Shown: positions 739-33,700 of the stretch, in pieces | How positions within the stretch are numbered: position 1 is the stretch's first letter | How the letters are laid out: each line of letters begins with the position of its first letter | Virus record (IMG/VR): IMGVR_UViG_3300045988_010662 | Coordinates: 1-41,172 of that record | Strand: one strand, 5' to 3' | Source of the DNA: a virus | DNA length: 41,172 bases | Position numbers and translations under genes: made by a program | The notes under the pieces: model-generated | Told to the model about the DNA's origin: nothing | Seen by the model: the letters and a program-made list of their open reading frames with translations, nothing else | Databases searched by the model: none

Positions 739-1809
739 TTATTTAAAAATATTAGCAACTGCATTTGATGCTGCTGCTTTCATTTCATCGTTATAATGTA
801 CATACGTTTTCATAACCATTTGTGGTGTATCACCAAGTAGTGATGATACAGTTTTCACATCTAGTCCATTTGCTAATAGCTTTGTAGCATAGGTATGTCT
901 AAGGTTATGAGCTGATAGGTTATCTCCAAAGCGTTTTAAGTATGTGTTTATTTGCCATTTAACTCCGTTTTTCTTATATGGGTTTAAAACTAAATCATGT
1001 TCAAACTCTAACTCATGTGATTTATATTCTATTAGTATGTTTTCTAATATGGGCGGAATTGGCAAAATTCGCACCGAATTGGCGGTTTTAGTTTTCTCAA
1101 AGGTGATTGCACCTTTACGGAAAGAAAGTTGCTTATTGATGTGAATTTGACGATTTTCTAGGGATATATCATTCCAAGTTAGTCCATATACTTCACTAAA
1201 TCTCATCCCTGTATATCTAGCTATCTGTAAAAAGTAATAGGCTTGTGGATATTTCTCACGCATAAACTTTGCGAATTGGTTTAATTCCTCATCGGAAATC
1301 GTGTGGATCATACTTTTTCGCTCAATGCGTGGCAACCTAACCCCAGTACATGGGTTATCTGAAATTATCTTGTATGGGTTTATCGCTATATAGAATATCC
1401 TTTCTACTACCTTATAATACGAATTAATGGTAGTAGGTGATGTAGCCATTTTATTTACTGCATTTTGAATGTGTAACGGCTTAACATCTGACAATTTCAT
1501 ATTGTGAATAGAATTGAACGCACACACCGCATGGTTATACATAACCAAAGTACTATGCGCAACGTGTGCCTTTTTTATTTCAAGGAACATATCCGCAAAT
1601 TCCTTGAAAGTTAATTCTTTTAATTCTGTGTCTTTTGTAAGTAGTGCGGTTTTGTCTAATTCTTTAACTATAACGTGTCCGTATTCCTTAGCCTCACGTT
1701 TGGTTTTGAAACCCTGTTTAGATTTCTGTTTCCATTTATAGCCGTCTTTGTACGCTACAATGATTTGAAAACCTTTATCCTTTTTTCTTATTGTAAAGTT
1801 GTATTGCAT
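739..1809 (-). CDS. int: Tyrosine recombinase / phage integrase
   Basis: Catalytic signature ARYTGMRFSEV (Arg), HNLRHTYAT (HxxR) and MKTYVHY (Tyr), plus an N-terminal arm-binding-like domain. ATG at 1809 is preceded by GAGGT; the track start at 1821 is a GTG inside that RBS. Confidence 0.9.
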   Translation of the reverse strand: MQYNFTIRKKDKGFQIIVAYKDGYKWKQKSKQGFKTKREAKEYGHVIVKELDKTALLTKDTELKELTFKEFADMFLEIKKAHVAHSTLVMYNHAVCAFNSIHNMKLSDVKPLHIQNAVNKMATSPTTINSYYKVVERIFYIAINPYKIISDNPCTGVRLPRIERKSMIHTISDEELNQFAKFMREKYPQAYYFLQIARYTGMRFSEVYGLTWNDISLENRQIHINKQLSFRKGAITFEKTKTANSVRILPIPPILENILIEYKSHELEFEHDLVLNPYKKNGVKWQINTYLKRFGDNLSAHNLRHTYATKLLANGLDVKTVSSLLGDTPQMVMKTYVHYNDEMKAAASNAVANIFK

Positions 1810-1817
1810 AATATACC

Positions 1818-2075
1818 TCACAATATATGCGTGTAGAAGTTGATACCCTCAAACTCTATTTCCCTAGCGTGTGCCATGCGTTCGATTAAATCAATATGAG
1901 CATGACTATACATATCATCATTTAATATATGACCTATCTCATGCAGTATACCTTTACGTTGCACATCAATAGGTTTATCACTATTAACGAGAATGGTGTA
2001 AGTGCCATCATCGTTTAGTTTTAATACCGCAGTTTGTGTAGGTCTTAACTTAGTGTAAATCAAAACTATATTCAT
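1818..2075 (-). CDS. ImmA/IrrE-family zinc metallopeptidase (anti-repressor protease)
   Basis: HEIGHILNDD HExxH motif, small size, and position beside the XRE repressor in the lysogeny module. ATG at 2075 has an AAGGGGG RBS; the track ORF extends to 2111. Confidence 0.7.
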   Translation of the reverse strand: MNIVLIYTKLRPTQTAVLKLNDDGTYTILVNSDKPIDVQRKGILHEIGHILNDDMYSHAHIDLIERMAHAREIEFEGINFYTHIL

Positions 2076-4152: not shown

Positions 4153-4203
4153 TAGAGATATTGGAAAATACTCTACTTGTATTTTAACACAAGGAGAATT
4201 TGA

Positions 4204-4692
4204 ATGCCAAGTTTATATGAACTAAATAAAGATTATAAAGAGTTACAAGCGATGTTAGAGGTGGCTGAAACCGAAGAGGATATGCAAGCCATCCAAGATA
4301 CTTTGGATATGTTAGATTGCAGCATCGATGAAAAAATCGAAAATACTGCAATGTTTATCCGTAACATCAAAGGTGATATTCAAGCATTTAAGGATGAGTC
4401 AAAACGGCTAAGTGCTAAAGCTAAGACTTTAGAAAACATGACTGAACGATTGAAAAATAACATTGATCATGTCATGAAAGAAAACCAACTAACAGAAAAG
4501 AAAGTTGGACAATTCAAATGTTACTACGAAGAAAGCGAAACAGTAGAGATTGATAACTTGGATGCACTACCTGATGAGTTTAGAAAGGTAACAATCGCAG
4601 CTGATAAGGTGGCAATCAAAAAAGCTATCAAGAACGAACAAGAAGTAGCTGGTGCAAGAATTGAAAAACACATGAACTTACAGATTGGTTAG
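4204..4692 (+). CDS. Siphovirus Gp157-family protein
   Basis: N-terminus MPSLYELNKDYKELQAMLE, with the length and charge pattern typical of Sfi21 gp157-like proteins that precede the annealase. Confidence 0.7.
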   Translation: MPSLYELNKDYKELQAMLEVAETEEDMQAIQDTLDMLDCSIDEKIENTAMFIRNIKGDIQAFKDESKRLSAKAKTLENMTERLKNNIDHVMKENQLTEKKVGQFKCYYEESETVEIDNLDALPDEFRKVTIAADKVAIKKAIKNEQEVAGARIEKHMNLQIG

Positions 4693-13099: not shown

Positions 13100-13234
13100 A
13101 TGGTATTGTTTATGTTTTTTTGCTTGATAGTTGCTATGGGTAATGTAAACAATGGTTATGCAAATGCAATTATATTTATAGCGTGGTGCGTATTGGTGTA
13201 TTTGCTAGCTATAAATGGTAATTTTAAAGAGTGA
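13100..13234 (+). CDS. Hypothetical 44-aa membrane peptide
   Basis: Hand-translated MVLFMFFCLIVAMGNVNNGYANAIIFIAWCVLVYLLAINGNFKE, with two hydrophobic stretches. Confidence 0.35.
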   Translation: MVLFMFFCLIVAMGNVNNGYANAIIFIAWCVLVYLLAINGNFKE

Positions 13235-13244
13235 GGTGAAGTGT

Positions 13245-13694
13245 TTGGGAGAATATGACGAAAAGCAACTAATAGAAAAGGCGGTTGAGTATTTACAACC
13301 AGTAAAGTTAGTAGATGTACAGATTGCATCTATCAAAGAGGAAATCAATCAGTTAAGAGCGAACCTTACATCAATAGGTGCGATTGATTACAGTAAGGAT
13401 AGAGTAACAGGAGGTGGCACTCCGCAAGGGTTAGAGGGTAGCGTAGCAAGATTTCTTGATACAGTCGCAGAACGTGATAAACGAATTGATGAGTTATCTA
13501 AACTAAAATGCGATGCGATCAATAGAATTGATGCACTAGACGAAAAGCTGGGTGCAATTATCCTACGTTATGAATTTGTACTCAACAATTCAACAGAAGA
13601 TGCTTATAAAATGATTGGGTGTTACTCTACGAAACAAGCGAAGAGATACAAGCAAAAAGCATTATTGGAATTTGGACAAAAACTTGTCCTATAA
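13245..13694 (+). CDS. ArpU/RinA-like late-gene transcriptional regulator (sigma region-4-like C-terminus)
   Basis: The C-terminus ILRYEFVLNNSTEDAYKMIGCYSTKQAKRYKQKALLEFGQKL matches the ArpU-type pattern. It is the last gene before the packaging genes. TTG 13245 follows GAGGTGAAG; the track start is ATG 13215. Confidence 0.5.
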   Translation: MGEYDEKQLIEKAVEYLQPVKLVDVQIASIKEEINQLRANLTSIGAIDYSKDRVTGGGTPQGLEGSVARFLDTVAERDKRIDELSKLKCDAINRIDALDEKLGAIILRYEFVLNNSTEDAYKMIGCYSTKQAKRYKQKALLEFGQKLVL

Positions 13695-13749
13695 TGTCCG
13701 TAAATGTCTGTAATTGTCCGTGTACCTATAGTTTGCTATTAGGTATAAT
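13695..13749 (+). promoter_or_regulatory. Candidate late promoter: three TGTC(C/T)GT boxes at 10-bp spacing, then TATAAT
   Basis: tgtccgt at 13695-13701, tgtctgt at 13705-13711, tgtccgt at 13715-13721, and tataat at 13744-13749 with no recognisable -35. Confidence 0.5.
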
Positions 13750-13815
13750 ATATATGTAGAAGTTGCCACTAAGCGACTTGTACTCACTCTTTCCTTATGG
13801 ACAAATCAAAACACA

Positions 13816-13853
13816 ACAACAAGCGCACCCAAATAAGAGTGCGCCTTTGTTGT
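13816..13853 (+). other. Bulged 13-bp hairpin
   Basis: acaacaagcgcac / gtgcgc(ct)ttgttgt with a 10-nt loop. Confidence 0.6.
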
Positions 13854-14219
13854 ATATGGGCGAAATGTGGTATAGAACAATTCATCGATGGACACAGAGT
13901 AGCAGCGCAACCATAATTGATTTGGTGAGTGAAACACTATACTTTTTTCTAATTTCAATTTTTGAAGTATGTGTTAGACAAAAATTTTATATGTAAATTT
14001 TTACTGCTGACTGATACAGGGTAAGTCGAATATCATCAAGCATAGCTTATAGCTTATACATTATACATTTTCAGATACGAACTTACCCTATATTGGTTAC
14101 ACATTGAATACTGACAACTAGCAGCCTCCAAAAGAACTTTATTCATATTTTGTTGTTACTTAACCTAACACGATTACGATCCATCAAATTGTTAGCTGTT
14201 GGTATTGAGTGTGTAATGA

Positions 14220-14327
14220 TCATTGAAAACTAGGTGTGTTTCTCTTTTCCAACTTGTTTATCTTATTCATAGTTGAACCTCAGAAAGCATAAATTGTCAT
14301 ATCATCAACGCACCTAGTTTTGAGTGA
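14220..14327 (+). other. Long-range 19-bp helix enclosing about 70 nt
   Basis: tcattgaaaactaggtgtg (14220-14238) pairs with cgcacctagttttgagtga (14309-14327). The core of 11 bp is perfect; overall there is 1 mismatch and 2 G-U pairs. Confidence 0.6.
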
Positions 14328-14362
14328 TTAATACAGGAAAAAAGAATAAATTTATCACAAAA

Positions 14363-14396
14363 TGGGGTATATTCACGGCGATATACTCCATTTTTT
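14363..14396 (+). terminator. Rho-independent terminator 27 nt upstream of the first late gene
   Basis: Stem tggggtatat / atatactcca (one G-U pair), loop tcacggcg, then tttttt. Confidence 0.75.
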
Positions 14397-14423
14397 GCAT
14401 AAATCTATCATAAAGGGGAGATT

Positions 14424-14615
14424 ATGACAGATGTAATGTGTTGTAAAAAGAAATGCCTTAACAATAAGAATGGCATATGTACCGCAAAAACAATAGAATA
14501 TGATGGCTTGTGCCAAACATATATCACCTGTGGCGGTGCGAGTAAATGTAATTATGGGTTGTGCGTTAGGTCGCATGGCAAGTTAAAAAGGAAAGGTGGC
14601 GAAGTGCTGAAATGA
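14424..14615 (+). CDS. Small Cys-rich protein (DUF1540-like pattern)
   Basis: 63 aa with 8 Cys (CCKKKCLNNKNGICTAKTIEYDGLCQTYITCGGASKCNYGLC). AAAGGGGAG RBS. Confidence 0.55.
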   Translation: MTDVMCCKKKCLNNKNGICTAKTIEYDGLCQTYITCGGASKCNYGLCVRSHGKLKRKGGEVLK

Positions 14616-15102: not shown

Positions 15103-15543
15103 ATGGCAGATGCTAACACCTTAACAGAAAAAGAACGAATATTTGCAGATGAGTATATCAAGACTACCAACGCAACACAGAGTGCTATTAAGGCTGGATA
15201 TGCAGAAAATAGTGCAAGTGTAACTGGAAGTAAGATGCTAAGAAAACCTAAGGTGCGCCAATATATAGATGCAGTCATGAACGAACGTAGTAAAAACACA
15301 ATCGCAACGGCTGATGAAGTGTTGGAATATCTGACTAGGGTTATGTGTGGCGAAGAAAAAGATGCATTTGGTTTAGATGTATCTGTAGCAGATAGAACGA
15401 AAGCAGCTGAACTCTTAGGTAAACGGCATATGCTATTTACCGATAAGGTCAAACTAGATGCAGAAATAGAGATTGATATATCCGATAGGATGAAACAAGC
15501 AAGGGTGAAATCAGATGAAGTACAACAAGGCACAACTGATTGA
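15103..15543 (+). CDS. terS: Terminase small subunit (Terminase_2-type)
   Basis: LTEKERIFADEYIKTTNATQSAIKAGYAENSASVTGSKMLRKPKVRQYI is the classic N-terminal HTH of this family. Confidence 0.85.
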   Translation: MADANTLTEKERIFADEYIKTTNATQSAIKAGYAENSASVTGSKMLRKPKVRQYIDAVMNERSKNTIATADEVLEYLTRVMCGEEKDAFGLDVSVADRTKAAELLGKRHMLFTDKVKLDAEIEIDISDRMKQARVKSDEVQQGTTD

Positions 15544-16978
15544 TGCGTTGGGTTCGTTCACTCATGATCCATTAGGCTTTGTATATTTCGCATTCCCTTG
15601 GGGTGAAAAGGGAACACCGCTTGAAAACTTTGATGGCCCTGATGAATGGCAAGTAAAGACTTTCAAGAAAATAGGCGAAGAGTTACGCAAAGGCAAATCA
15701 TTGGCCAAAGCAATACAAATAGCCGTGGCATCAGGGCATGGTATTGGTAAGTCCGCCTTTTCTTCGTTGTTGATATTATTTGCCATTGCTACACATGAAA
15801 ACACACGTGGAGTTGTAACCGCTAATACTGATACACAGCTAAAGTCTAAGACTTGGGCTGAGTTGAATAAGTGGTACAACCTATTCATAGGTAAAGAACT
15901 ATTCACCTATACTGCTACCGCATTGTTTAGTGCTGATAAGCAATATGAAAAAACATGGCGCATTGATGCTATTCCTTGGAGTGAAAGTAACCCTGAGGCA
16001 TTCGCTGGCTTGCACAATCAAGGTAACAGAATACTTATCATCTTTGATGAGGCATCCGCAATATCAGATAAGATATGGGAAGTAACAGAGGGTGCATTGA
16101 CAGATAAGGAAACCGAGATTATATGGTGCGTATTTGGTAACCCTACACGTAATAGCGGTAGGTTTAGGGAGTGTTTCAGAAAACATCGTAATTATTGGAC
16201 TACATATCAGATTGATAGTAGAACAGTTAAGATTTCAAACAAGGCTAAGTTGCAAGAATGGGTAGACATTCATGGTGAGGATAGCGACTTTGTAAAGGTT
16301 CGTGTAAGAGGGTTATTCCCTAGTGCATCTGATACACAGTTTATATCGGCTGAAATAGCAGACGAGGCACAGAAACGAGTATACAAAGTTGGACAGTTTA
16401 ACAACTTACCAACAATCATTGGTGTTGACCCTGCATGGACTGGCGGTGATACGTTAGAAATCGTAATGCGTAATGGCTACTCTATGAAGTGCCTAGCAAC
16501 TATTGAAAAGAATGATGATGATATGCGAATGGCTAACCTCATTGCCCAATTTGAAGATGAATATAAAGCTGATGCAGTATTTATCGACCAAGGCTACGGA
16601 ACTGGCATTTATAGTATCGGTAAATCAATGGGTAGGAAATGGCGGTTAGTTGCCTTTGGTGGTAAAGCACCTAATGATATGTATCTCAATATGCGTGCAT
16701 ATATGTGGGGCGAAATGAAAGACTGGCTAAAAGAGGGCGGTTCTATTCCGCCTAATGACCAAGGGTTATATGACGATTTAACGAGTCCAGAGGAACTCAT
16801 TGATAAGAATGGGCGAATACAACTTGAAAGTAAGAAAGACATGAAAGAACGAGGGTTACCGTCTCCGAATAAAGGCGATGCGTTAGCCTTGACCTTTGCA
16901 TTCAAGGTCAATAAAAAAGTGAATGTAGGGAGTAGGGTTCATGCTAATACTGAGTATGATCCATTTAAAAAAAGATAA
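15515..16978 (+). CDS. terL: Terminase large subunit
   Basis: Walker A-like SGHGIGKSA and Walker B ILIIFDEAS; 487 aa; overlaps terS. Confidence 0.9.
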   Translation: MKYNKAQLIDALGSFTHDPLGFVYFAFPWGEKGTPLENFDGPDEWQVKTFKKIGEELRKGKSLAKAIQIAVASGHGIGKSAFSSLLILFAIATHENTRGVVTANTDTQLKSKTWAELNKWYNLFIGKELFTYTATALFSADKQYEKTWRIDAIPWSESNPEAFAGLHNQGNRILIIFDEASAISDKIWEVTEGALTDKETEIIWCVFGNPTRNSGRFRECFRKHRNYWTTYQIDSRTVKISNKAKLQEWVDIHGEDSDFVKVRVRGLFPSASDTQFISAEIADEAQKRVYKVGQFNNLPTIIGVDPAWTGGDTLEIVMRNGYSMKCLATIEKNDDDMRMANLIAQFEDEYKADAVFIDQGYGTGIYSIGKSMGRKWRLVAFGGKAPNDMYLNMRAYMWGEMKDWLKEGGSIPPNDQGLYDDLTSPEELIDKNGRIQLESKKDMKERGLPSPNKGDALALTFAFKVNKKVNVGSRVHANTEYDPFKKR

Positions 16979-17180: not shown

Positions 17181-18902
17181 ATGCAAGGTACTATATTATC
17201 AACACTTGCTAGACAACCAACTAACACAGAGCCTAAAAAACGTGATTACACGAAAATTAAGGCGAAGTTTAAAGCGATGTTTGATAATCGTCAAAAGTAC
17301 ATATCAAGATGGAAAGACATTCGAGATTATCAATTGCCTTTCCTTGGTGTATTTGATGATGAACAAGACCAATCGAAAGTTTACACCGATAAGATTAATA
17401 ATGGTGTAGCATGGGAAAGTTGCCAAATCTTTGCTAGTGGCGTTATGAGTGGTATGACACCACCTAGCCGAAAATGGTTTAAACTCACGTTAGAGAATGC
17501 TGAATTGGCTGCTAATAGTAAGGTAGCGGAAGTATTAGATGATAGAGAACAGATACTATACGCAGTATTTGCTAAGTCTAATTTCTATAACACCGTACAC
17601 CAAACATATATGGAGTTGCCATTTGGCCAAGCACCCATGTCAATCATGCCTGATGCAAAAGTAGGTGTGAGGTTCACATCTTATCCTATCGGCACGTATG
17701 CGTTAGAATGCGGAAGTAATGGTGATGTAAATACATTTGGTCGTAAGTATCGAATGACGTCTGACCAATTAGTGGAAGAGTTTGGTTATGATGCTTGCCC
17801 TGATAAAGTTAAACGTGCTTATGATGAGGGCAAGGGTAATGCAAGTACATTTATTGTTTGTTGGTTTGTATTACCTAACAAAGACCGCAACGGAAAACTA
17901 GGTAATAAAAATATGCCTTATTCCTCTATCTATTGGTGTGAGGATAGCAACACAGATGAAATCTTGCGACATAGTGGTTTTAAAGAGTGGGCGATACCGA
18001 TTGCAAGACACACTACACATGATCTAAGCGGTTATGGTAAAGGGTGTGCATGGTTCGCACAATCAGATGCACAGATGTTACAACTACTTGAAAAAGATTT
18101 AGTAACGGCTATTGAATTAGGTATTAAACCACCTATGAGTGCTACATCTGATGTGATTGGTAGTGTAAATCTATTTCCGGGCGGTGTAACGGAAGTTGAT
18201 ACTGGCGGTAAGGTTGAACCGATATTCAATGTAGGTATTGATGTTGCTAACGTACAAGCGAAGATACAGTTTGTATCTGAAAGCATTAAGCGTGCTTATA
18301 GTGCTGACTTATTCTTAATGCTTGATAACATCGATAGCGGACAAATGACCGCACGTGAGGTTATGGAACGCACACAAGAAAAGATGCAACAGTTAGGCCC
18401 TGTGGTTGAACGATTACAAAGTGAGTTTTTAAACCCAATCATTGAACGTACTTACGGCATCCTAGATAGGGCTGGAATATTTCCGCCAATCGATGAACAG
18501 ACTGCTGAAATGCTAAATGGAATGGATGTAAAGATTGAATACATCTCACCACTAGCACAAGCACAGAAAATGTCATCTTTGGTAAATATCGAACAGTACT
18601 ATGCTTTCATAATGTCATTAGCACAGGGCAATGCAAACATCGTTCAGAAATTCAACTTTGAAGAGGCAGCTGACATATATGGTGTAAATCTTGGTGTACC
18701 AGCTAGGGTTATTCGTTCTAATGATGAGTACCAAAAAATCATGGAACAACAACAACAAGCACAACAAGAGCAAGAGGAACAAGCACAAGCAATGCAAATT
18801 GCACAACTAGCACCTCAAATGGCTGGTGCTGCTAAACAAGCAACAGATGCAGCCAATGACGGCAATCCAGTAATGCAACAGTTAATGGGTATGGGGGTGT
18901 AG
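17181..18902 (+). CDS. Portal (head-to-tail connector, T7 gp8-like)
   Basis: 573 aa directly after terL. The N-terminal pattern (RQKYISRWKDIRDYQLPF ... SRKWFKL) is like podovirus connectors, and the C-terminal tail is Gln-rich. Confidence 0.8.
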   Translation: MQGTILSTLARQPTNTEPKKRDYTKIKAKFKAMFDNRQKYISRWKDIRDYQLPFLGVFDDEQDQSKVYTDKINNGVAWESCQIFASGVMSGMTPPSRKWFKLTLENAELAANSKVAEVLDDREQILYAVFAKSNFYNTVHQTYMELPFGQAPMSIMPDAKVGVRFTSYPIGTYALECGSNGDVNTFGRKYRMTSDQLVEEFGYDACPDKVKRAYDEGKGNASTFIVCWFVLPNKDRNGKLGNKNMPYSSIYWCEDSNTDEILRHSGFKEWAIPIARHTTHDLSGYGKGCAWFAQSDAQMLQLLEKDLVTAIELGIKPPMSATSDVIGSVNLFPGGVTEVDTGGKVEPIFNVGIDVANVQAKIQFVSESIKRAYSADLFLMLDNIDSGQMTAREVMERTQEKMQQLGPVVERLQSEFLNPIIERTYGILDRAGIFPPIDEQTAEMLNGMDVKIEYISPLAQAQKMSSLVNIEQYYAFIMSLAQGNANIVQKFNFEEAADIYGVNLGVPARVIRSNDEYQKIMEQQQQAQQEQEEQAQAMQIAQLAPQMAGAAKQATDAANDGNPVMQQLMGMGV

Positions 18903-21243: not shown

Positions 21244-21474
21244 ATGGAATACGTTGCAAAAGTAACCCTTTATCACAATACAAAGGGTTTAATTGAAGAG
21301 GGAACAACGGTTGAATTTACAAAAGAAGAAGTAGCCGAATATGATAAAGACTACTTCAAAGATTTGTTTGAAACTGTTGGTGCAGAAGAAGTCGCAGAAG
21401 TAGAACCTACGGAAGAAACTGTAGAAGCTACACCAAAGAAACGTGGTAAAAAAGCGGAAGAAGCTGCTGAATAA
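21244..21474 (+). CDS. Small acidic/Lys-rich virion-region protein
   Basis: 76 aa from ATG 21244 (AAGGTGG RBS); Glu/Lys-rich C-terminus. Confidence 0.45.
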   Translation: MEYVAKVTLYHNTKGLIEEGTTVEFTKEEVAEYDKDYFKDLFETVGAEEVAEVEPTEETVEATPKKRGKKAEEAAE

Positions 21475-21480
21475 TTGAAC

Positions 21481-21508
21481 GAGGGGGTATTTTGCCCCCT
21501 CTTTTTTT
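21481..21508 (+). terminator. Rho-independent terminator after the capsid block
   Basis: gaggggg-tattttg-ccccctc followed by ttttttt. Confidence 0.85.
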
Positions 21509-25521: not shown

Positions 25522-27731
25522 TGAAGTTAATAGGCTATGATAGTAATCAACGCTTAAACACAATTAATGGCGGTGTACAAGCTAATGTAAATGAAATGGC
25601 TTATGGTGGCAACACGCAAGGCATGGATAACCTCACAAAAGCCATTGGTGATTTAGGCAACACAATGCTAACAATACAAAAGCAAAAGGAAATGACCGAT
25701 GTTGTGAATGCAACAAATGAGTATAACACCATGATGAATGATTGGCTATATAACCCTGATAATGGTGCTATGAACCGAAAGGGCGAAAATGCTTTGACTA
25801 TTCCGCTTGATTATCAAAATCAAGAGAAAAGAGCAAGGCAGCTTATATCCGAGAAGTATGGCTTTAAATTCAATGATGCGGTCAATGCCTTTAATAAAGT
25901 TGCAGATAATGATATGACCAATACAACAAACACAATCAATAAGTTTGTGCGTGGTCAATTTGAAGATAGTGCTATGAAAGCATTAGATATGAATGTGCAA
26001 AACATATCTAATAATGCGGTAGTAAATGCTAGTCCTGATGCATTCGATGATGCTATGAAACAAGTAAGCGGTAGTGTGGCAGCACAACTATCTAATCTTG
26101 GGTATGATGATAACACTATCCGATTACAAGTAAAGAAAGCGCAACAAAACATTGCTACAACCATGATTGAAAAGAAGATGGCTGATGATGATTTAGATGG
26201 TGCTAATAAGATTATCAATCAAGTTGCCATGTCAGGCTTAATCGATGAAGAAAAAATCATGGGATATCGTCAAAAGGTGCGCAATGCATCAATGGTATTA
26301 GCTACATCAGATGATAGCAAGATTGATGGTGTCATTGGTGAGTTTGACCCTAATGATCCTGACTTACTAACTAAAGTTACTGATAAGTTATTTACAAGTG
26401 GTTTTGGTAAAGTCGCTGGTGCTAGTGGTGGAAATGCAAGCGTTCAAGACCTTATGGATGCGGTTATGGGTCAAGAAAGTAGCGGTGATGCTGGAGCAGT
26501 TAATGGCAGAACTGGTGCTTATGGATTATTCCAAATATTACCTAGTAACTGGCCACAATGGAGTGAACAAGCTGGTATAGCTGGCGCAGACATGACAGAC
26601 CCTGAGGCACAAAAGAAAGTTGCAGCATATAAACTTGGTGAGTATGCAAAAGAGTATGGTGTAGAGGGTGCGTTTGCTGCTTGGTATGCTGGACCTGTAA
26701 ATGGTGCTAGATGGAGAGATGGTGCGCCTGATGCGGTTGATGGTGATGGTAACCATTATTCATGGGATGCTCCGCAAGGTGCTGGTGATGAGCCTAGTGT
26801 TCGTCAATACATACAAGAAGTTAAAGCAAAATTATTTGGTGGTGAAAAAGCTAGAGAAGAAACACCGGCAGAGGCACAAAAGCGAAAAGAAATCATTCAA
26901 CGCAACGTGGCAACACGATTACAAGTCATGGCTAAACGTAAAGCACAAATACTTGAAAATCAAAAAGTAGAGATTGAGCAACGTGTAGCAGCGGCGGTAA
27001 GAAATGGTGCAACCGATGTTGAAGTATTAAAGTTAAGGCAAGATTATGCAGAAACACATCCTGAATACCAAAGAGCAATGCAAGGTCAGTTAAACCAAGC
27101 ACAGATTTCTGTAAATAAAGCAGCGGCAAAAGCATTGCAAGCAAAAGAGGCGAACGTATTGGCGGTTAAAACCGCAATCGCAAATGGTCAATTCAAAAGC
27201 ATGGATGATTTAAATAACTTCATGGGGCAAATGGGTGTGTACTTTACACCACCACAACTTGCACAAATCAACCATGATTTTGACGAATACTCAAATGGTA
27301 CTGGAAAGTATTCTCCTGAAATGTCAGGTATGAAGAGTAGCATAGAAAACTTAGCTGGTAGAAAAATAGATGGTGTTGAATGGCAAGGTGTATCAACCGC
27401 AGTTTATCCTAAAGTACAAGAATTTAGAGAGAAACACGGCTATGATCCATCGCCTGCACAAATGGCACAATGGGGTGCTGATGCGGTAGCAGAACAAACA
27501 ATCGCATCTACAGAAACTGGTAAATATTGGGGTGTAGGTAAACGTGCTAACTTATTTGGTGGTAGAGGCGCTGCATTATCTTACACAAACGCACAACTAG
27601 CATCACAAGGTATGTATGGTTTATATAACACAACTGGTGCAGATGGTCAGCCATACTACGTTTATAAAGATGCTAGGGGCGAAGAATACACCATTACACC
27701 AGCAGAATTAGCTGAAAGGTTAGGTCAATAA
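25521..27731 (+). CDS. Internal virion protein with a lytic transglycosylase (SLT) domain (gp15 slot)
   Basis: The SLT signature LMDAVMGQESSGDAGAVNGRTGAYGLFQILPSNW ... AAWYAGP has its catalytic Glu codon at 26475-26477. The protein is 736 aa. Confidence 0.75.
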   Translation: MKLIGYDSNQRLNTINGGVQANVNEMAYGGNTQGMDNLTKAIGDLGNTMLTIQKQKEMTDVVNATNEYNTMMNDWLYNPDNGAMNRKGENALTIPLDYQNQEKRARQLISEKYGFKFNDAVNAFNKVADNDMTNTTNTINKFVRGQFEDSAMKALDMNVQNISNNAVVNASPDAFDDAMKQVSGSVAAQLSNLGYDDNTIRLQVKKAQQNIATTMIEKKMADDDLDGANKIINQVAMSGLIDEEKIMGYRQKVRNASMVLATSDDSKIDGVIGEFDPNDPDLLTKVTDKLFTSGFGKVAGASGGNASVQDLMDAVMGQESSGDAGAVNGRTGAYGLFQILPSNWPQWSEQAGIAGADMTDPEAQKKVAAYKLGEYAKEYGVEGAFAAWYAGPVNGARWRDGAPDAVDGDGNHYSWDAPQGAGDEPSVRQYIQEVKAKLFGGEKAREETPAEAQKRKEIIQRNVATRLQVMAKRKAQILENQKVEIEQRVAAAVRNGATDVEVLKLRQDYAETHPEYQRAMQGQLNQAQISVNKAAAKALQAKEANVLAVKTAIANGQFKSMDDLNNFMGQMGVYFTPPQLAQINHDFDEYSNGTGKYSPEMSGMKSSIENLAGRKIDGVEWQGVSTAVYPKVQEFREKHGYDPSPAQMAQWGADAVAEQTIASTETGKYWGVGKRANLFGGRGAALSYTNAQLASQGMYGLYNTTGADGQPYYVYKDARGEEYTITPAELAERLGQ

Positions 27732-30700
27732 TGAATAAGATTACACCTGAACAAGCGACAAAGGGTACATTTGGAATTAAATCAAATGCAAATGTAGGTT
27801 TTGTTGGTGGTGTTCAACAAGAAGTAACAGACAATTCATATAGTAAAGCTATAGGTAACGCAGTTAGTGGTATTAGTGATTGGGTAACGAAAGACCCATC
27901 AACCGCCACAGTCGATGTAAATGCAATGAACGCATTAACACAAACTGATGTTACACCGCAACAAAGCGAAAACTTTGTAAATAAAGCTGGTGAAATCTTA
28001 CAACCTGTAATGCATCGTGCAGAGCAAATCTATTTGTGGAATAAAGCAGACTGGGCGCAATCAGCATATGATAGTGGTGAGGCACTAGGTATTAGTCCTG
28101 ACATTATCATGGCTAGTGGTCAAGATGGTATTAGACGAGCAGAGGCAGCAGCAGCACAAATCAATAGAGGTAAAACTCTTAATGAAGTGTATGAGTTGTA
28201 CCCTGAATTAGTTGGTATCAATTATAAAAACTCCGCAGAGGCTATCACTACTCTTCAAAACCTACAATCTGTAAAAGATACACATGGTGTATGGGATAGC
28301 ATTCAACAAAATACATGGGCAATTAATGACCAAATCAAATTAGGCAAAGTTGGTATGGAGTTATCAACTGCTACTGATCCACAACGCATTCAAGAACTTA
28401 ATGACGAGGTAGAACGCTTACAATCTAATTTATCTAAATATCGTAAATCAGATGATAATAACGTATTAGAAAATGTAGTTGGTGCTACTGCTAGTCAAGT
28501 ATATATGATGGCTGCACACGCTATCATGGGTTCTAATCGTGCTGCAGAGGGTATGGCATTAGGTGCAGCGGCTGGTGTTGCTGCTACTGCACCATTTGGT
28601 GGTGAGGGGGCTATCCCCGGTGCATTGGTTGGTTTAAATACTGGTGTTCAAGTTGGTATGGCTGAACAAATGTATCAAATGTCTTTTGGTAACAAATACC
28701 TTGAACTCATTCAAAAACGAGATGCAAATGGAAATCAAGTATACTCTAATGAAGAGGCTAGAAAGTATGCTATGTCATACGCAGCTATTGATGCTGGTAT
28801 CGAATTTGTAGCAACTAAAGCTATAGGTAAAGGCATCAATAATGTTGCACCTAAATCAGCGTTAGCAAAAGTAATTACAAATGGAACTACAGATATTGCA
28901 GCAACCTTTGATAGAGGTATTGGAACAACTGTTGCACAGATGGCTAAAAACTCTATTAAAGCTGGTGTACCTGAACTCTTTGAAGAGGGCTTGCAAGATA
29001 TAAACGAAAAGGTACAACACAACCTAACACGCAAGGATAATGACCTAGAGGGTTATTATAGCGTAGGTGATATTGCTATAGGTTCATTAGATGCAATGAA
29101 ACAAGCATTGCCAGCGGTAATAGGTTTTGGTGCTATCGGTGGTGCAGTAGGTGGTGTACGTACTGCAAAGGCTTTCCGAGATTTCCAAAAGCTAACACCT
29201 GAACAACAACAAGCAGCAATCATCGCAGAGCAAAACCGCAATGGTGCAGTCATTATGGATAATGTTCGTAAGGATAGCACTACCAATAAAATCGCAAAAG
29301 AAAACCCTGAGTTGTACGGAAAAATCGTACAAGCGCAGGGCGATAAGGTTGGTGTATCAACTCAATATGTAGATGTAGCGGAATTAGTACAATCTGAAAA
29401 CGGACAACTTGCTATCCGTGATATGGTTGATAACGGCTTGGTAACACAAGAGGAAGTAAAAGCAGCTATCGAGGCTGATGCACCTGTTGAAATTCCTATT
29501 GGTAGCTATGCACAAGTATCTATGAACTTATCTGATGAAACAGTAGATGCATTGAAACAAACCTCATACTTTACACGTGGCGGTATGTCATTGGCTACAT
29601 TAGAACGTGCAAAACAAGAAGTAGATATTGCTAAATCTGTATTGAAAGACGATACATCAAAACGTGCGGAACGTATCAAAGATGATATTATCCGTAATGA
29701 ATTTGAGGGTGCAAGTGATATAGATCGTGAAGTACTTAACGAGGTACTATCTGACCCTACGAACATTAAACGTAATTTCAATAACTTATTGCATACGTTA
29801 AAAGAACAGTATAGAGAAAACTATGCTAGTGATTTTGACAATGCAGATAAATCTATAAATGATGCGGTAAGTACTGGTATTGAACCACAATGGTTAGTTG
29901 ATTATAAAGCTAACAACGGCGGTAAAGCACCACGTACCAATGCAGAACGTAGACGAGCAGCCTATGAGTATAGCCGAGCAACTACAACTGCTAGTTTAGA
30001 TGGTAATGCCGATGCACTAGCACAATCTGATGCACATTATGCAGATATGGAATATATGTTGATGCAAATCGAAAGTTTAGAGGCTATGAAAGATAAAGTC
30101 TTTGAATTGGCGAATAATGACATAGCATTACGGATGCAATTATCTAAAAGTGGATATGATGTATACAACGAAGTAGTTAAAGCTATTAGCGAAAGCACGA
30201 ATAGAAAACAACGTGAAACTGCAAAAGCAAATGCATTATTGATGGCACAACACGCTGATATAATGGCACAATATATGCGACAAATGGGCAAAGGCGGTTA
30301 TATCGCTATGGATTATTTCCGTGATAGCGTGCGTATCAACATGAATGCTAAATTAGGAGAAAAAGGCGGATATGCACAACCACTAAATGTTGATGTTGAC
30401 TTAAATCACAGATTACAAGTTGTTGATTTAACAAATCTTAAAACTAATCTGAAAACAGAAAAAGACATAATAGATTTATTTAAAAACACACCACCACAAG
30501 CGGTTATGATTGAGGATGGTAAGGTTATTGTTTTACCGCCTGATGATATTAATGGTATTAAACATATTCCATATGGTACGCAAAAAGGTAAAAAAATAGC
30601 AAATAAAAAAAGAAGAATTGTAGAAGATATTGCAAATATATTGCAACATAGTGTATTGATTGATAGCTCGCCTAATAATAAAATTGGTAGATCAAAATCT

Positions 30701-33700
30701 GGCATGAGTGCTAATCAACGTAAATCGCAAAATAGAAAAAATACTATTGTTAATTACCACAATTTACTATCGGCAATTCGTATTAATGGAAATTATTATG
30801 CAGTTAGATTTGTAGCAGAAGAAAAACAAGGGCATTTAACAGTATACCCAAGAACAGTTTATTTATACGATATAATTATGCAAAAAAGCAGTACTACTAG
30901 TCGCCCGACTCAGAGTGGCAATAGCCAAGCGGTCGGTCAAATGACCAGTAATACTGCTTTTGATACTATAAGTATAAAAGATATATTGAACGGGGTCAAG
31001 GACGGAAAAGGTGTTTTATATGTAGATAATAATGGAAATGGCAATTATTACACACAAACATATAATCAATCAGCATGGCATGGTTCACCACATGACTTTG
31101 ACACATTTGATTTAGGTGCTATTGGTACTGGTGAGGGTAATCAAGCACATGGTTGGGGTTTGTATTTTGCTAAGAAAAAATCAGTATCTAGGAATTATCA
31201 AAAGGAATTGTCTAAGCGATTAGGAACTACAAATCCAAAATTATTCAAAGTTGAAATTCCAGATGAAAAAACAATGCTTGATGAAGATAAATATTTCAAA
31301 GAGCAAAATAAAGATATTATTAACAAGATAGTATCAGCCGTTAATAATTTAGAAATCGATAAGCGAAAAGCTTTATTAGATCACTATAAAGAACATCCAG
31401 CTTATCCTGTTAATAAAGAGTATGAAAAAATACTAGGCAAAATACAGAGCATAAATCAAGATAGGGAATATATAACTGATGCTCTAGTAAACAATGTAAG
31501 TAAAATAAAAGAAAAAATTGCTAGAGAAGCTGCTGCTGAGTACGGATATAACTTTGACGAGTTAAAAGCAGATAATACATTTGAAATGGCTAAAAAGTTA
31601 ATAGGTGAAATTAATGAAAAGTTATCGGCACTAGAAAAAGAGAAAGAAGTTGAGGGTGCAAAAGAAAAAATAAAAGAAGATAAGATCTTGGAAAGTATCG
31701 GTGATACATTTACAAAAACACCATATACAGGAAGAGATGTTTATGTTGCATTGTCAAAAGCATTTGGCGGTGATAAAGGTGCATCTGAATTTTTAAACTC
31801 AACTGGTGTTAAGGGCATTACATATGATGGATATACAGACGGACGATGCTATGTAGTATTTGATGATAAGGCAATCAAAGTCATTGAAAAGTACAACCAA
31901 TCAATAAACGGCATGACCGAAATCATGAAAGATGGTGAACGCATTATCAGCATTTTCAAGACAGCTGATAGAAGTACATTCTTACACGAAATGGGTCATG
32001 TTTTCTTTGATGATATACAAAAATTAGCATCTATGGAAAACGCACCTGAGCAACTTGTAACAGATTGGAACAAGTTGAAAGAGTGGAGCGGTTGGGTTGA
32101 TGGTGAAAACGTAGACAATACGAAAGCACATGAAAAATTTGCACGAGGGTGGGAAAGCTACTTGCGAAGTGGTGAAGCACCAACAAGTGCATTGCAAAGA
32201 GTATTCCGTCAATTCTCCAAATGGCTGACATACATTTATCGTAGCGTTCAACGATTAGGTGGTGAAGTACCAACTGATATTAAAGATGTTATGGCACGTA
32301 TGATCGCAACCCAAGAGGATATTGAGGTATACGCAGAGCAACAACAATTAGAACAGTTTGAGAAAACTGAACTGTATAAGCAACTATCCGAACAAGACCA
32401 AGCACGGATGCAGTCTTACATAGCAGATGTTAAGGAAAAAGCAAAAGAACGTGTGATGCGAAAACTCATGAAAGAATTGGATAATCGACCAATTAAAGAA
32501 TGGGAAGAAGAAAAGGATGCTATTCAAATTGAAATAGAAAAACGATTGATTGAGCAATATCCTATATACAAAGAGCATCAACGATATAACGTGTTTGGTG
32601 AGGGTGCATTGAAAGATACACGGTACAACTCTATTGAAGAGTTGGAGAAAGTGGAAGTAGAGCAAACTGGTACTACATTTAACGATGCTATCAATCAAGA
32701 AATGGACAATGCGAAAGCAGAGTTTATGAGTGATAACAATGTAGGCAAAACCAACGAGCAAATCGCAGAAGAAATCTTGCTTAGTACCCAAGGTCAAATG
32801 AGATTAACCGAAGAAGAAAGTAAGATTATTCAAAAGTCTACTAATCGTGAACTAGCGAAGAACTGGGAGTTGTTAGAGCGTATTCGTAAACTAGACCCTA
32901 ACGCAGAAACTATTGATACAGAGTTAAGTGAAATCGAAAAAGAGGTTAAACCTACTAAGTACGATGAGTTAAAATCTGATAAGAAAAAAGTAGATGCTGC
33001 TTTGAGTGATACTACTAAGCAATTAGAAAAAGCAGAAGAACGTATCAAACGCTTACAGTATATGCTGAATAATCGCATCAATAATGTTCGTTCTATTCGA
33101 GGCGCTGGACTTGGTACAATTTCTGACTACATGAACCGAGCAAGAAAAGAATTAGGTGAGTTGCCTATATCTAATGCGATACAGTTTAAAACGTATCAGA
33201 ATAAAGCGGTAACTGCTGGCAAGAAAGCAGATAGAGCATTGGCAATCGGTGATGTTGATAAAGCACTTGGCTTTAAGCGTGAACAGATGCTACAACAAGC
33301 AAGGGCGAGAGTAGCGTTTGAAAACTTTGAAAAGTCCAAGAAGTTGCGATTGAAATTAAAACAACAATTACAACGCATGACTAGACCGAAGAACCCTATT
33401 GCTATTGAACCTAATATGCGTTATTTCTACGCACACATGGCATACCAAATGGGTTTAACTAAGTACGATGGACTAGCACCTACAGATGGTTTTGATATGA
33501 ACACAGTATTATCTGCACTAGATGTGGATGCACTTATTCTTAACCAACAATCAATGGTTCAATTAGAACCTTGGATAGCTGAAATGTTCTATTCTAAAAC
33601 ACCTAAATCATTTAAATCTATCACAATGAACGAGTTAGAAACTTTGGAAGAGTTAATGACTGGGATGTACAAGAATGGTAGAAATGAGTATGAGGGTACA

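Follow-up and report, generated by a model that had tools for sequence, protein, structure and literature searches.

The systems closest to the element described here are RNA signals of hosts, phages, and mobile elements. BoxA nucleates the antitermination complexes of ribosomal RNA (rRNA) operons, or rrn operons, and of lambda N, with lambda exploiting the Nus complex through nut, and the completed rrn leader-trailer helix is the processing stalk for RNase III (PMC10250234). Large cis-acting RNA antiterminators are also known from Firmicutes mobile elements, where each lies near a regulator gene, namely canT of Tn916 (PMC11658703) and conAn2 of pLS20 (PMC8191782). Here, we report on the IMG/VR virus record IMGVR_UViG_3300045988_010662, analysed over all of its 41,172 nucleotides (nt; hereafter the window), and specifically on the gap between its late regulator gene and its first late gene. 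The genome is that of a temperate Veillonella phage with a single late operon, and the gap is predicted to encode the untranslated leader RNA of this operon; in this leader, tandem hairpins copy, at the level of sequence and predicted pairing, the core of the host 16S precursor rRNA (pre-rRNA) leader-trailer helix. An earlier note, made from the letters of the window, had described the gap as 729 nt free of open reading frames (ORFs), with the late regulator on one side and the late operon on the other, which was borne out, with exact bounds (13695-14423) set by the regulator stop codon at 13692-13694 and the ATG at 14424.

The finding rests on two consecutive hairpins in the 3' half of the leader:

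14098..14215, plus strand: H2, a module of type A, with 8 base pairs (bp), a G·G mismatch, ~17 bp, and a 66-nt apical region (78.8 bits with the model R1)
14217..14330, plus strand: H3, a module of type B, whose arms resemble the host rrn leader and trailer strands (83.5 bits with R1)

H2 is a long hairpin that the earlier note did not list. The same note had proposed a 19-bp long-range helix, which is present with different bounds: it is H3, in which 14217-14240 are paired with 14307-14330. It had also pointed to a palindrome at 14215-14224, which exists as the junction between the two hairpins. R1, a covariance model that we built from the hairpin modules, gave exactly two matches in the window, H3 and H2, with minus-strand scores of 35.7 and 20.2 bits, and it prefers the plus strand by 40-60 bits. 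Both hairpins follow a design common to all relatives, comprising (i) an 8-bp lower stem, (ii) an invariant G·G mismatch, (iii) an upper stem of 15-18 bp, and (iv) an apical insert of 40-115 nt, for a unit length of 87-166 nt and a helix of 23-27 bp. The sequence of the upper stem varies from hairpin to hairpin, while remaining complementary within each. Among 20 representative modules, 98.3% of the cells were in standard pairs and 15 of 23 pairs had changed on both sides; none of 500 shuffles reached the observed values, and sliding the register lowered the pairing to 34-42%. The helix cells of the 86 distinct modules comprise 1648 Watson-Crick, 299 G·U, and 11 A·C combinations. Because G·U exceeds A·C to this extent, the form under selection is the plus-strand RNA and not the duplex DNA. 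Moreover, the G on the 3' strand is kept in all 86 modules.

The relatives carry one to four modules of about ten types in varied combinations, the commonest arrays being A,B (30 sequences) and A,B,D (13), and since module number and combination vary, so does the length of the gap (504-928 nt). Junctions between modules are quasi-palindromes (AGTTTTGAGTGATCATTGAAAACT), and the D-type modules contain the palindrome GUUUCCUAGGAAC. The apical inserts differ in their nucleotide diversity (pi), as the insert of type A (H2) is constrained (0.106), whereas that of type B (H3) is almost neutral (0.210). By a manual count of the inserts, UUUCC, CCUUUC, or CCUCC is present in 17 of 22 module types, for example at 14124-14129 and 14241-14249, and the same pyrimidine motifs, which resemble the 3' tail of 16S rRNA (anti-Shine-Dalgarno), recur in the conserved 5' leader at 13788-13795. 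On these grounds, H2 and H3 are assigned to a new family of predicted hairpins. Several other readings of the repeats were considered and rejected. A ToxI-like element of a type III toxin-antitoxin system needs near-identical direct repeats of 34-54 nt, with a terminator and then a ToxN-type gene, whereas the repeats here are inverted-repeat hairpins with differing arms and the downstream gene encodes a Cys4 protein of 63 amino acids (aa). In a CRISPR-like mini-array, identical direct repeats would alternate with unique spacers, whereas the repeated motif here consists of inverted arms that pair with each other. Finally, the attC-like, BOX/REP-like, and ribozyme readings are contradicted by the repeat geometry and by the lack of partner genes and of an Rfam match.

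An invariant core, 5' (C)AUUGAAAACU pairing with AGUUUUGAG(UG) and including the G·G mismatch, runs through the modules, and its resemblance to Firmicutes rrn leaders prompted a test against host operons. The predicted host genus of this prophage family is Veillonella, as genomes carrying the late regulator are those of V. parvula DFI.7.83 and of Veillonella metagenome-assembled genomes. Using a Veillonella genus-specific 16S primer taken from the full text of the literature, we collected 120 metagenome loci, whose assignment to Veillonella is therefore through this primer and not through taxonomy; for one locus, Rfam placed the small-subunit rRNA at L219 9820-11384 and the large-subunit rRNA from 9463. 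In 66 Veillonella rrn operons, ACAGATCTTTGAAAACTGAACAATG lies ~155 nt 5' of the 16S gene and CATTGTTCGGTTTTGAGAGATCTGT lies 70-110 nt 3' of it. The leader strand ACAGAUCUUUGAAAACUGAACAAUG is complementary to the trailer strand CAUUGUUCGGUUUUGAGAGAUCUGU, and complementarity and position together predict a 25-bp host leader-trailer helix. This helix contains a G·G mismatch, with U·G wobbles two positions before and six positions after it, and these positions match those of the phage modules.

The 5' strand of the host helix carries the rrn boxA, which recurs in the 16S-23S spacer as TTGTTCTTTGAAAACTGCATAGAAG and there pairs with the 23S trailer via G-C. By manual alignment, the host strand agrees at 10 of 11 positions with GYTCTTTAANA, which is a gamma-proteobacterial boxA consensus (PMC5725501), and the host boxA string is also the conserved spacer target of a standard Mollicutes polymerase chain reaction primer. 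On each strand, phage and host share an exact identity of 14 nt: 44 phage loci contain TTGAAAACTGAACA, and 36 contain TGTTCGGTTTTGAG. The host 14-mer GATCTTTGAAAACT finds its best match within the window, at one mismatch, in the 5' arm of H3. This arm (GAUCAUUGAAAACU) is identical to the boxA strand of the host rrn leader at 13 of 14 positions, and the 3' arm of H3 (GUUUUGAGUGAUU) is identical to the host trailer strand at 11 of 13. When the rest of the phage leader was compared with the host rrn leader and spacer, similarity was confined to the stem core. The modules thus have the attributes of a 16S leader-trailer helix, namely a helix of more than 17 bp, distant strands, and host-conserved sequence, but their inserts enclose no 16S rRNA and the window is without rRNA. 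Taken together, these alignments show the predicted modules to copy the core of the host 16S pre-rRNA leader-trailer helix, the 5' strand of which is the rrn boxA.

The copy is not exact at the boxA itself. In boxA (UGCUCUUUAACA), the key bases are G2, C5, U6, and U8, and for E. coli and lambda, NusB/NusE no longer bind once position 2, 5, or 6 carries a transversion (PMC3177189). The Veillonella host keeps all four bases; H3 (UGAUCAUUG) keeps G2, C5, and U8 but has A6; and the boxA-like strand of H2 has A6 and has lost G2 as well. In the modules, the change to A6 is matched by a compensating change on the opposite strand.

To find deeper relatives, IMG/VR was scanned for the module motif and then with R1 and tblastn. 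These searches identified a divergent group of Veillonella phages whose regulator is 32-50% identical, and whose first late protein is 51-57% identical, to that of the window. Its layout is a regulator gene, then 1.0-1.7 kb without forward genes but with two to three modules, then the homolog of the first late gene. Because the modules persist despite this regulator divergence and despite changed DNA repeats near the promoter, they would be recognised by a host factor. Four loci with regulator homologs at 29-31% identity (L097-L100) had no R1 hairpins.

Generality was tested by scanning IMG/VR with the host-type motif. An unrelated phage, L344 (41% GC), carries a single R1-type hairpin just 3' of a phrog_36/1058 regulator with direct repeats, and this hairpin keeps all four boxA key bases, G2 included. 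Furthermore, a second hairpin family, mostly of 68 nt (some ~76 or ~138), with the form TTGCTTTGAAAACTGCATCAAAC...GTTTGGTGTGGTTTTGAGAGCAA, occurs on at least 51 IMG/VR contigs (L366-L476). It has the same G·G mismatch in 29 of 29 variants and the same wobbles, and it keeps C5, U6, and U8 of boxA. At every locus with a detected flanking gene, the hairpin lies on the same strand, 0.5-4 kb 3' of a phrog_1058/36 regulator and/or 0.3-2.9 kb 5' of terS/terL. In L366, the hairpin (4170-4255) is directly 3' of the intrinsic terminator of a gene that we read as DUF2829-like, whose protein matches only unnamed PHROGs. Related candidate mimics are therefore found in at least two other phage groups, and the association of a late regulator, a putative stalk mimic, and packaging genes is not confined to Veillonella phages.

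The remaining features of the locus, with the leader read from its 5' end, are as follows:

13215..13694, plus strand: late regulator gene, 159 aa, distant ArpU/RinA type (phrog_36)
13685..13719, plus strand: four direct repeats, TGTCC/TGTCC/TGTCT/TGTCC, in 10-bp phase, overlapping the regulator stop codon
13744..13749, plus strand: TATAAT -10 box of a putative late promoter, 24 nt past the last TGTCC
13756..13815, plus strand: most conserved 5' segment (pi 0.041 over the first 60 nt after the promoter)
13756..13783, plus strand: 5'-terminal hairpin (-12.3 kcal/mol, z -3.6)
13816..13853, plus strand: t1, a GC-rich hairpin with a broken U-run (-16.9 kcal/mol; two compensatory pairs)
14008..14099, plus strand: H1, an 18-bp hairpin outside the R1 module family (-23.2 kcal/mol; covariation at 14024/14083 and 14022/14085)
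14356..14397, plus strand: t2, an intrinsic terminator with an A-tract, a stem of 12-13 bp, an 8-nt loop, and U6, lying 27 nt before the first late gene
14415..14615, plus strand: ribosome-binding site GGGGAG and first late gene ORF63, encoding a small Cys4 protein (phrog_33034, E 1.3e-8), with a homolog after the leader in the divergent group

The order within the leader is thus the 5' hairpin, t1, ~155 nt of less structured sequence, H1, H2, H3, a 25-nt spacer, t2, GGGGAG, and ORF63. As to the regulator, the 159-aa protein matches phrog_36 ('transcriptional regulator', E 3.3e-13) and phrog_248 ('transcriptional activator', E 3.1e-5), and its match to the ArpU model TIGR01637 is weak (E 8.7e-4; 19.5 bits, below the curated cutoff of 43.1). 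The protein is present on many metagenome contigs (125 blocks) and has 175 IMG/VR relatives, and the 90%-identity cluster of its close relatives holds 1733 member sequences.

The direct repeats, which the earlier note had missed, start at 13685, 13695, 13705, and 13715, exactly 10 bp apart, and form the only cluster of their kind in the window. Among relatives, the TGTCC cores are kept and the spacers drift; L094 has five copies (4425-4479), with the same 24 nt to the -10 box. The divergent group instead has five TCGGA-type repeats (L117 6130-6190, L165 3228-3280), and L344 has three to four GTTCAA repeats in 9-bp phase (~5330-5285, minus strand) next to its divergent regulator. In all cases, the promoter-adjacent repeats overlap the regulator gene at its 3' end; the L094 regulator lacks a stop codon, and its ORF continues through the repeats to 171 aa. 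Because the type of repeat switches with the regulator lineage, we infer that the TGTCC repeats are putative binding sites of the regulator. The TATAAT box, named in the earlier note, is present and conserved in relatives, and no -35 hexamer lies upstream of it. A candidate second promoter at 13889-13917 (TGGACA-17-CATAAT) was rejected, as most relatives have another sequence in place of its -35 element, and L084 and L081 lack the region altogether.

The hairpins that the earlier note had described in the leader were likewise recovered, in part within larger structures. The bulged hairpin at 13816-13853 is t1, in which GCGCAC/GUGCGC is replaced by GCACGC/GCGUGC in relatives; an analogue (GGGGAAC/GUUCCCC) exists in the divergent group, and t1 may be an attenuator or a structural element. 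The 9-bp inverted repeat at 14018-26/14081-89 is real, covaries, and is the top of H1. Because H1 is absent from L084 and L081, where 13868-14030 are missing, it would be dispensable in some relatives. The heptamer duplications in the loop of H1 exist as well (TAGCTTA twice, then TACATTA/TACATT, at 14043-14070); since this stretch is gapped in 27% of relatives, they look like a lineage-specific indel or a recent slippage duplication. The predicted terminator 27 nt 5' of the first late gene is t2, now placed at 14356-14397 and also covarying (14365/14388 and 14366/14387). Compensatory changes among relatives, for which the earlier note had proposed to look, are therefore present in all five structures (t1, H1, H2, H3, and t2).

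As an intrinsic terminator, t2 has a stable stem-loop (-17.5 kcal/mol, z -6.35) with the U-run directly after it, and its sequence is nearly identical in L094, L117, and L165. A simple terminator scan missed it, probably since the upstream A-tract pairs with the U-run. The 27-nt spacing leaves no room for a promoter between t2 and ORF63. In L117 and L165, t2 is followed by one module, a bidirectional terminator, a moron cassette on the reverse strand, and then the ORF63 homolog. This cassette (L117 6750-7070, L165 3720-4430) encodes a conserved protein of 50-51 aa and, in L165, also ORFs of 61 and 64 aa, the former being helix-turn-helix-like by eye. The site just 3' of t2 looks like an insertion hot spot, and because the only recognisable late promoter lies upstream, late transcription in L117 and L165 would have to cross several terminators. 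In the window itself, a strong plus-strand intrinsic terminator (GAGGGGG...CCCCCUC and U7) lies inside the late operon at 21481-21501, between an ORF ending at 21474 and the next block, and late transcription must therefore read through it as well. Two further candidates around t2 were rejected. An upstream ORF across t2 (14362-14427, 21 codons, with an ATGA overlap with the ORF63 start) has a reverse strand that 'encodes' a similar peptide and, because its length (17-35 codons) and start codon vary among relatives, it is probably a by-product of the palindromic hairpin. A long-range pairing of 13788-13799 with the ORF63 ribosome-binding site, seen in the minimum-energy fold, involves segments that are invariant, and no comparable complement was seen in the L094 and L165 leaders.

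ORF63 (14424-14615) encodes a small, basic protein of 63 aa with invariant C6, C11, C19, and C30 and the motifs CLNNK and IEYDGLCQTYIT, and in both groups of Veillonella phages its gene is without exception the first to follow the leader. Some gene callers lengthen it to 84 aa, through t2. Apart from the phrog_33034 match, family searches with ORF63 returned no informative family; its cysteines and position suggest that it could be a zinc-binding partner of the leader RNA. The window as a whole is a ~41-kb temperate phage with an integrase ORF at 739-1821 (minus strand), and from 2913 on its long ORFs are mostly on the plus strand. The packaging genes follow the leader as TerS (15103-15543), TerL (15515-16978), and portal (17181-18902), and the tail region has a single 2723-aa ORF (27731-35902) and then a 1252-aa ORF. 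Pfam scans of ten proteins near the leader found Terminase_2 only and no ConAn1 domain (PF17362). Neither a tRNA nor a tmRNA was found in the window, and neither the INPHARED phages nor the PLSDB plasmids gave a DNA or protein match to the element or the locus.

The leader is a conserved, non-coding, plus-strand structured RNA region. Across 67 distinct relatives, pi in the gap is 0.120 with no 3-nt periodicity (0.123/0.112/0.125), whereas in the three flanking genes it is 0.04-0.11 for the first two codon positions and 0.24-0.32 for the third; by comparison with these third positions, the gap evolves at about half the synonymous rate or less. Its only ORF of at least 60 aa (13763-13996, TTG start, 77 codons) matches neither Pfam nor PHROG and is interrupted in relatives by indels of 1-2 nt and by a deletion of ~160 nt, so that the conserved protein-coding ORF that would have spoken against the earlier note's view of the gap as a non-coding unit was not seen. 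The plus strand folds at -178.9 kcal/mol (z -6.45 against shuffles), and the minus strand has z -3.9. The Rfam search proposed in that note, run with all 4227 models including GOLLD, ROOL, HEARO, and raiA on the window and five related loci, returned no match at the gathering score, and at E up to 10 only chance matches to miRNA-like hairpins.

How the leader acts can be proposed from sequence comparison. We tentatively favour, at somewhat short of even chances, a mimic of the rrn leader that brings about both RNase III processing and, for late transcription, read-through of the Nus type at t2 and at the terminators after it. In this scheme, the ArpU-like regulator would bind the phased TGTCC repeats and fire the TATAAT promoter, and RNA polymerase would transcribe the leader. 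The boxA-like 5' strands and helices of the modules would then be treated as an rrn leader, such that host NusB/S10, NusA, and NusG are loaded and elongation becomes processive through t2, the moron terminators of relatives, and the 21481-21501 terminator, across the ~27-kb late operon. The completed helices would be cut by RNase III, like the 16S stalk, detaching the leader, while unmodified transcripts would end at t2 and leave the late genes silent. The lambda PR'/6S/tR'-style leader suggested in the earlier note, with its need for terminator read-through, fits the layout (regulator, repeats and promoter, untranslated leader, and conserved t2), with relatives adding morons that carry terminators of their own.

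Several observations weigh against this proposal. The boxA U6 position is A in 74 of the 86 module variants of the Veillonella phages, and positions 2-5 vary. Selection keeps the helix, down to the mismatched 3'-strand G, and not a single-stranded boxA, and a helix reader of the RNase III type would therefore fit better than NusB. Furthermore, the partner strand follows ~90 nt past boxA, which leaves little time for Nus loading; the E. coli rrn complex counters mainly Rho and not intrinsic terminators; and t1 lies upstream of the modules, which thus cannot help polymerase past it. Finally, antitermination needs neither a variable number of modules (1-4) nor varied apical inserts.

Among the rivals, the one that survives best, although we consider it unlikely, is RNase III processing alone. 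Here, the modules would copy the 16S stalk as a substrate and the leader would be cut at defined sites, freeing the late mRNA, whose 5' end t2 would protect as a hairpin, and possibly excising the 40-115-nt inserts as small RNAs, with passive read-through of t2. The stems of 24-27 bp, whose G·G mismatch and U·G wobbles do not vary on either strand and recur in the host helix, are in keeping with it, and it is favoured by the compensated A6 and by the selection on the helix, as the 3'-strand G would not be required of a NusB site. The differences between inserts, the constraint on the type A insert, and the UUUCC/CCUCC motifs in most of the 22 inserts also agree with small RNAs, but the near-neutral insert of H3 does not, and the passage of t2, of the moron terminators, and of the 21481 terminator would be left unexplained. 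This explanation and the favoured rrn-leader mimic can both be true.

A more far-reaching idea, to which we give slightly less credence still, is that the leader is a pseudo-rRNA operon, each module being a miniature pre-16S, with a stalk and often CCUCC/CCUUUC, that the host treats as pre-rRNA. If this is true, RNase III would free exchangeable small RNAs, or the modules would hold factors of ribosome biogenesis or antitermination; host translation or rRNA synthesis would be reprogrammed late in infection, and the strategy might be that of many Firmicutes phages of the ArpU/RinA type.

Two further rivals are improbable. In a mechanism of the lambda Q type, the ArpU-like protein, loaded at the promoter via the TGTCC repeats, would by itself make polymerase resistant to terminators. 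The role of tR' would fall to t1 and t2, with the hairpins as accessory elements for stability or protection from Rho. The gene order does match lambda Q-PR'-6S-tR', and the repeats co-vary with the regulator lineage, but proteins of the ArpU/RinA type are annotated as activators, and this mechanism explains neither why the hairpins copy the host rrn helix nor why they are conserved across regulators of 32-50% identity. Equally hard to credit is a decoy, in which an abundant leader ending at t2 titrates pre-16S factors (RNase III, Nus, or 30S assembly factors), so that host ribosome synthesis is shut down or phage double-stranded RNA is protected. The variable module number, the sharing of modules by several phage lineages, the terminator, which would raise the leader above the mRNA in abundance, and the CCUCC and CCUUUC motifs like the 16S 3' tail are all compatible with titration, whereas the single copy of the shorter, mostly 68-nt family 5' of terminase genes fits a cis role better.

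The last two rivals can be dismissed as very improbable. A DNA-level site (pac, cos, replication origin, or recombination site) read as a palindrome or cruciform, of which the earlier note had raised the pac or ori form, would suit a gap upstream of packaging genes with quasi-palindromic module junctions, but it is contradicted by the G·U excess over A·C, by the strand preference of R1, and by variable arm parts that covary within a hairpin and differ between hairpins. Likewise, a decayed or unrecognised protein gene could point to the 77-codon TTG ORF and a known large non-coding RNA (GOLLD, ROOL, HEARO, or raiA) to the size class of the gap, but the former is opposed by the missing codon periodicity and database matches, by indels in relatives that are not multiples of three, and by partial deletion of the region, and the latter by the empty Rfam search. 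Of the earlier note's suggestion of a large structured non-coding RNA, structure and conservation thus remain, in a modular hairpin array and not one large fold of those families.

The wider interest of the element lies in late transcription. Hairpins that copy the host stalk and boxA, and that lie between the late regulator and the packaging genes, are a candidate RNA signal by which the long late operons of Gram-positive-type ArpU/RinA phages may pass terminators and morons; the Veillonella prophages that carry them form a family very common in human samples. If confirmed, the element would add a new class of phage element to boxA/Nus biology or to RNase III stalk recognition, would be a case of RNA mimicry of pre-rRNA, and could serve in Veillonella and other Firmicutes as a portable cassette for read-through or processing.

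Compared with the rrn leader, the phage leader has the same core (UUGAAAACU paired with (A/G)GUUUUGAG, with the G·G mismatch and the U·G wobbles), in some modules identical over 14 nt per strand, the same helix of 24-27 bp with a boxA-like 5' strand, and at least two units in series, as in the 16S and 23S units of an rrn operon. It differs in that its units enclose 40-115 nt and no rRNA, lie in a late leader with a terminator after the array, and have A instead of U at boxA position 6, compensated on the opposite strand. With lambda nut it shares a phage RNA signal that has a promoter 5' and terminators 3' and uses a host boxA variant deviating from the rrn consensus; however, no boxB or N homolog was identified here, the boxA is inside a long helix, and the leader is modular, with several copies, and serves the late and not the early operon. 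Like canT and conAn2, which are untranslated RNA regions of 260-600 nt in Firmicutes mobile elements and act in cis, it is large and lies near a regulator gene, 5' of a terminator that gates a long operon; however, no sequence similarity to them was found, with no plasmid match and no ConAn1 in the ten nearby proteins scanned, and rRNA-leader mimicry has not been reported for them. The lambda PR'-6S-tR' region with Q has the same succession of regulator, DNA sites and promoter, untranslated RNA with a terminator at its end, and late genes, whereas the leader here is 3-8 times longer and highly structured, and its regulator is of the ArpU/RinA type and not Q. The RNase III hairpins of T7 likewise form a family of long, paralogous hairpins within phage transcripts, and their stems too hold a conserved non-canonical feature. 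They are intergenic and are not known to copy the host rRNA stalk, whereas those of the window are all stacked in one leader. Our literature search found no publication describing such an element. Its parts are known, namely boxA, the leader-trailer helix, terminator-gated leaders, and RNase III hairpins, but their use in a phage late leader, as a tandem array that copies the host stalk, appears to be new.

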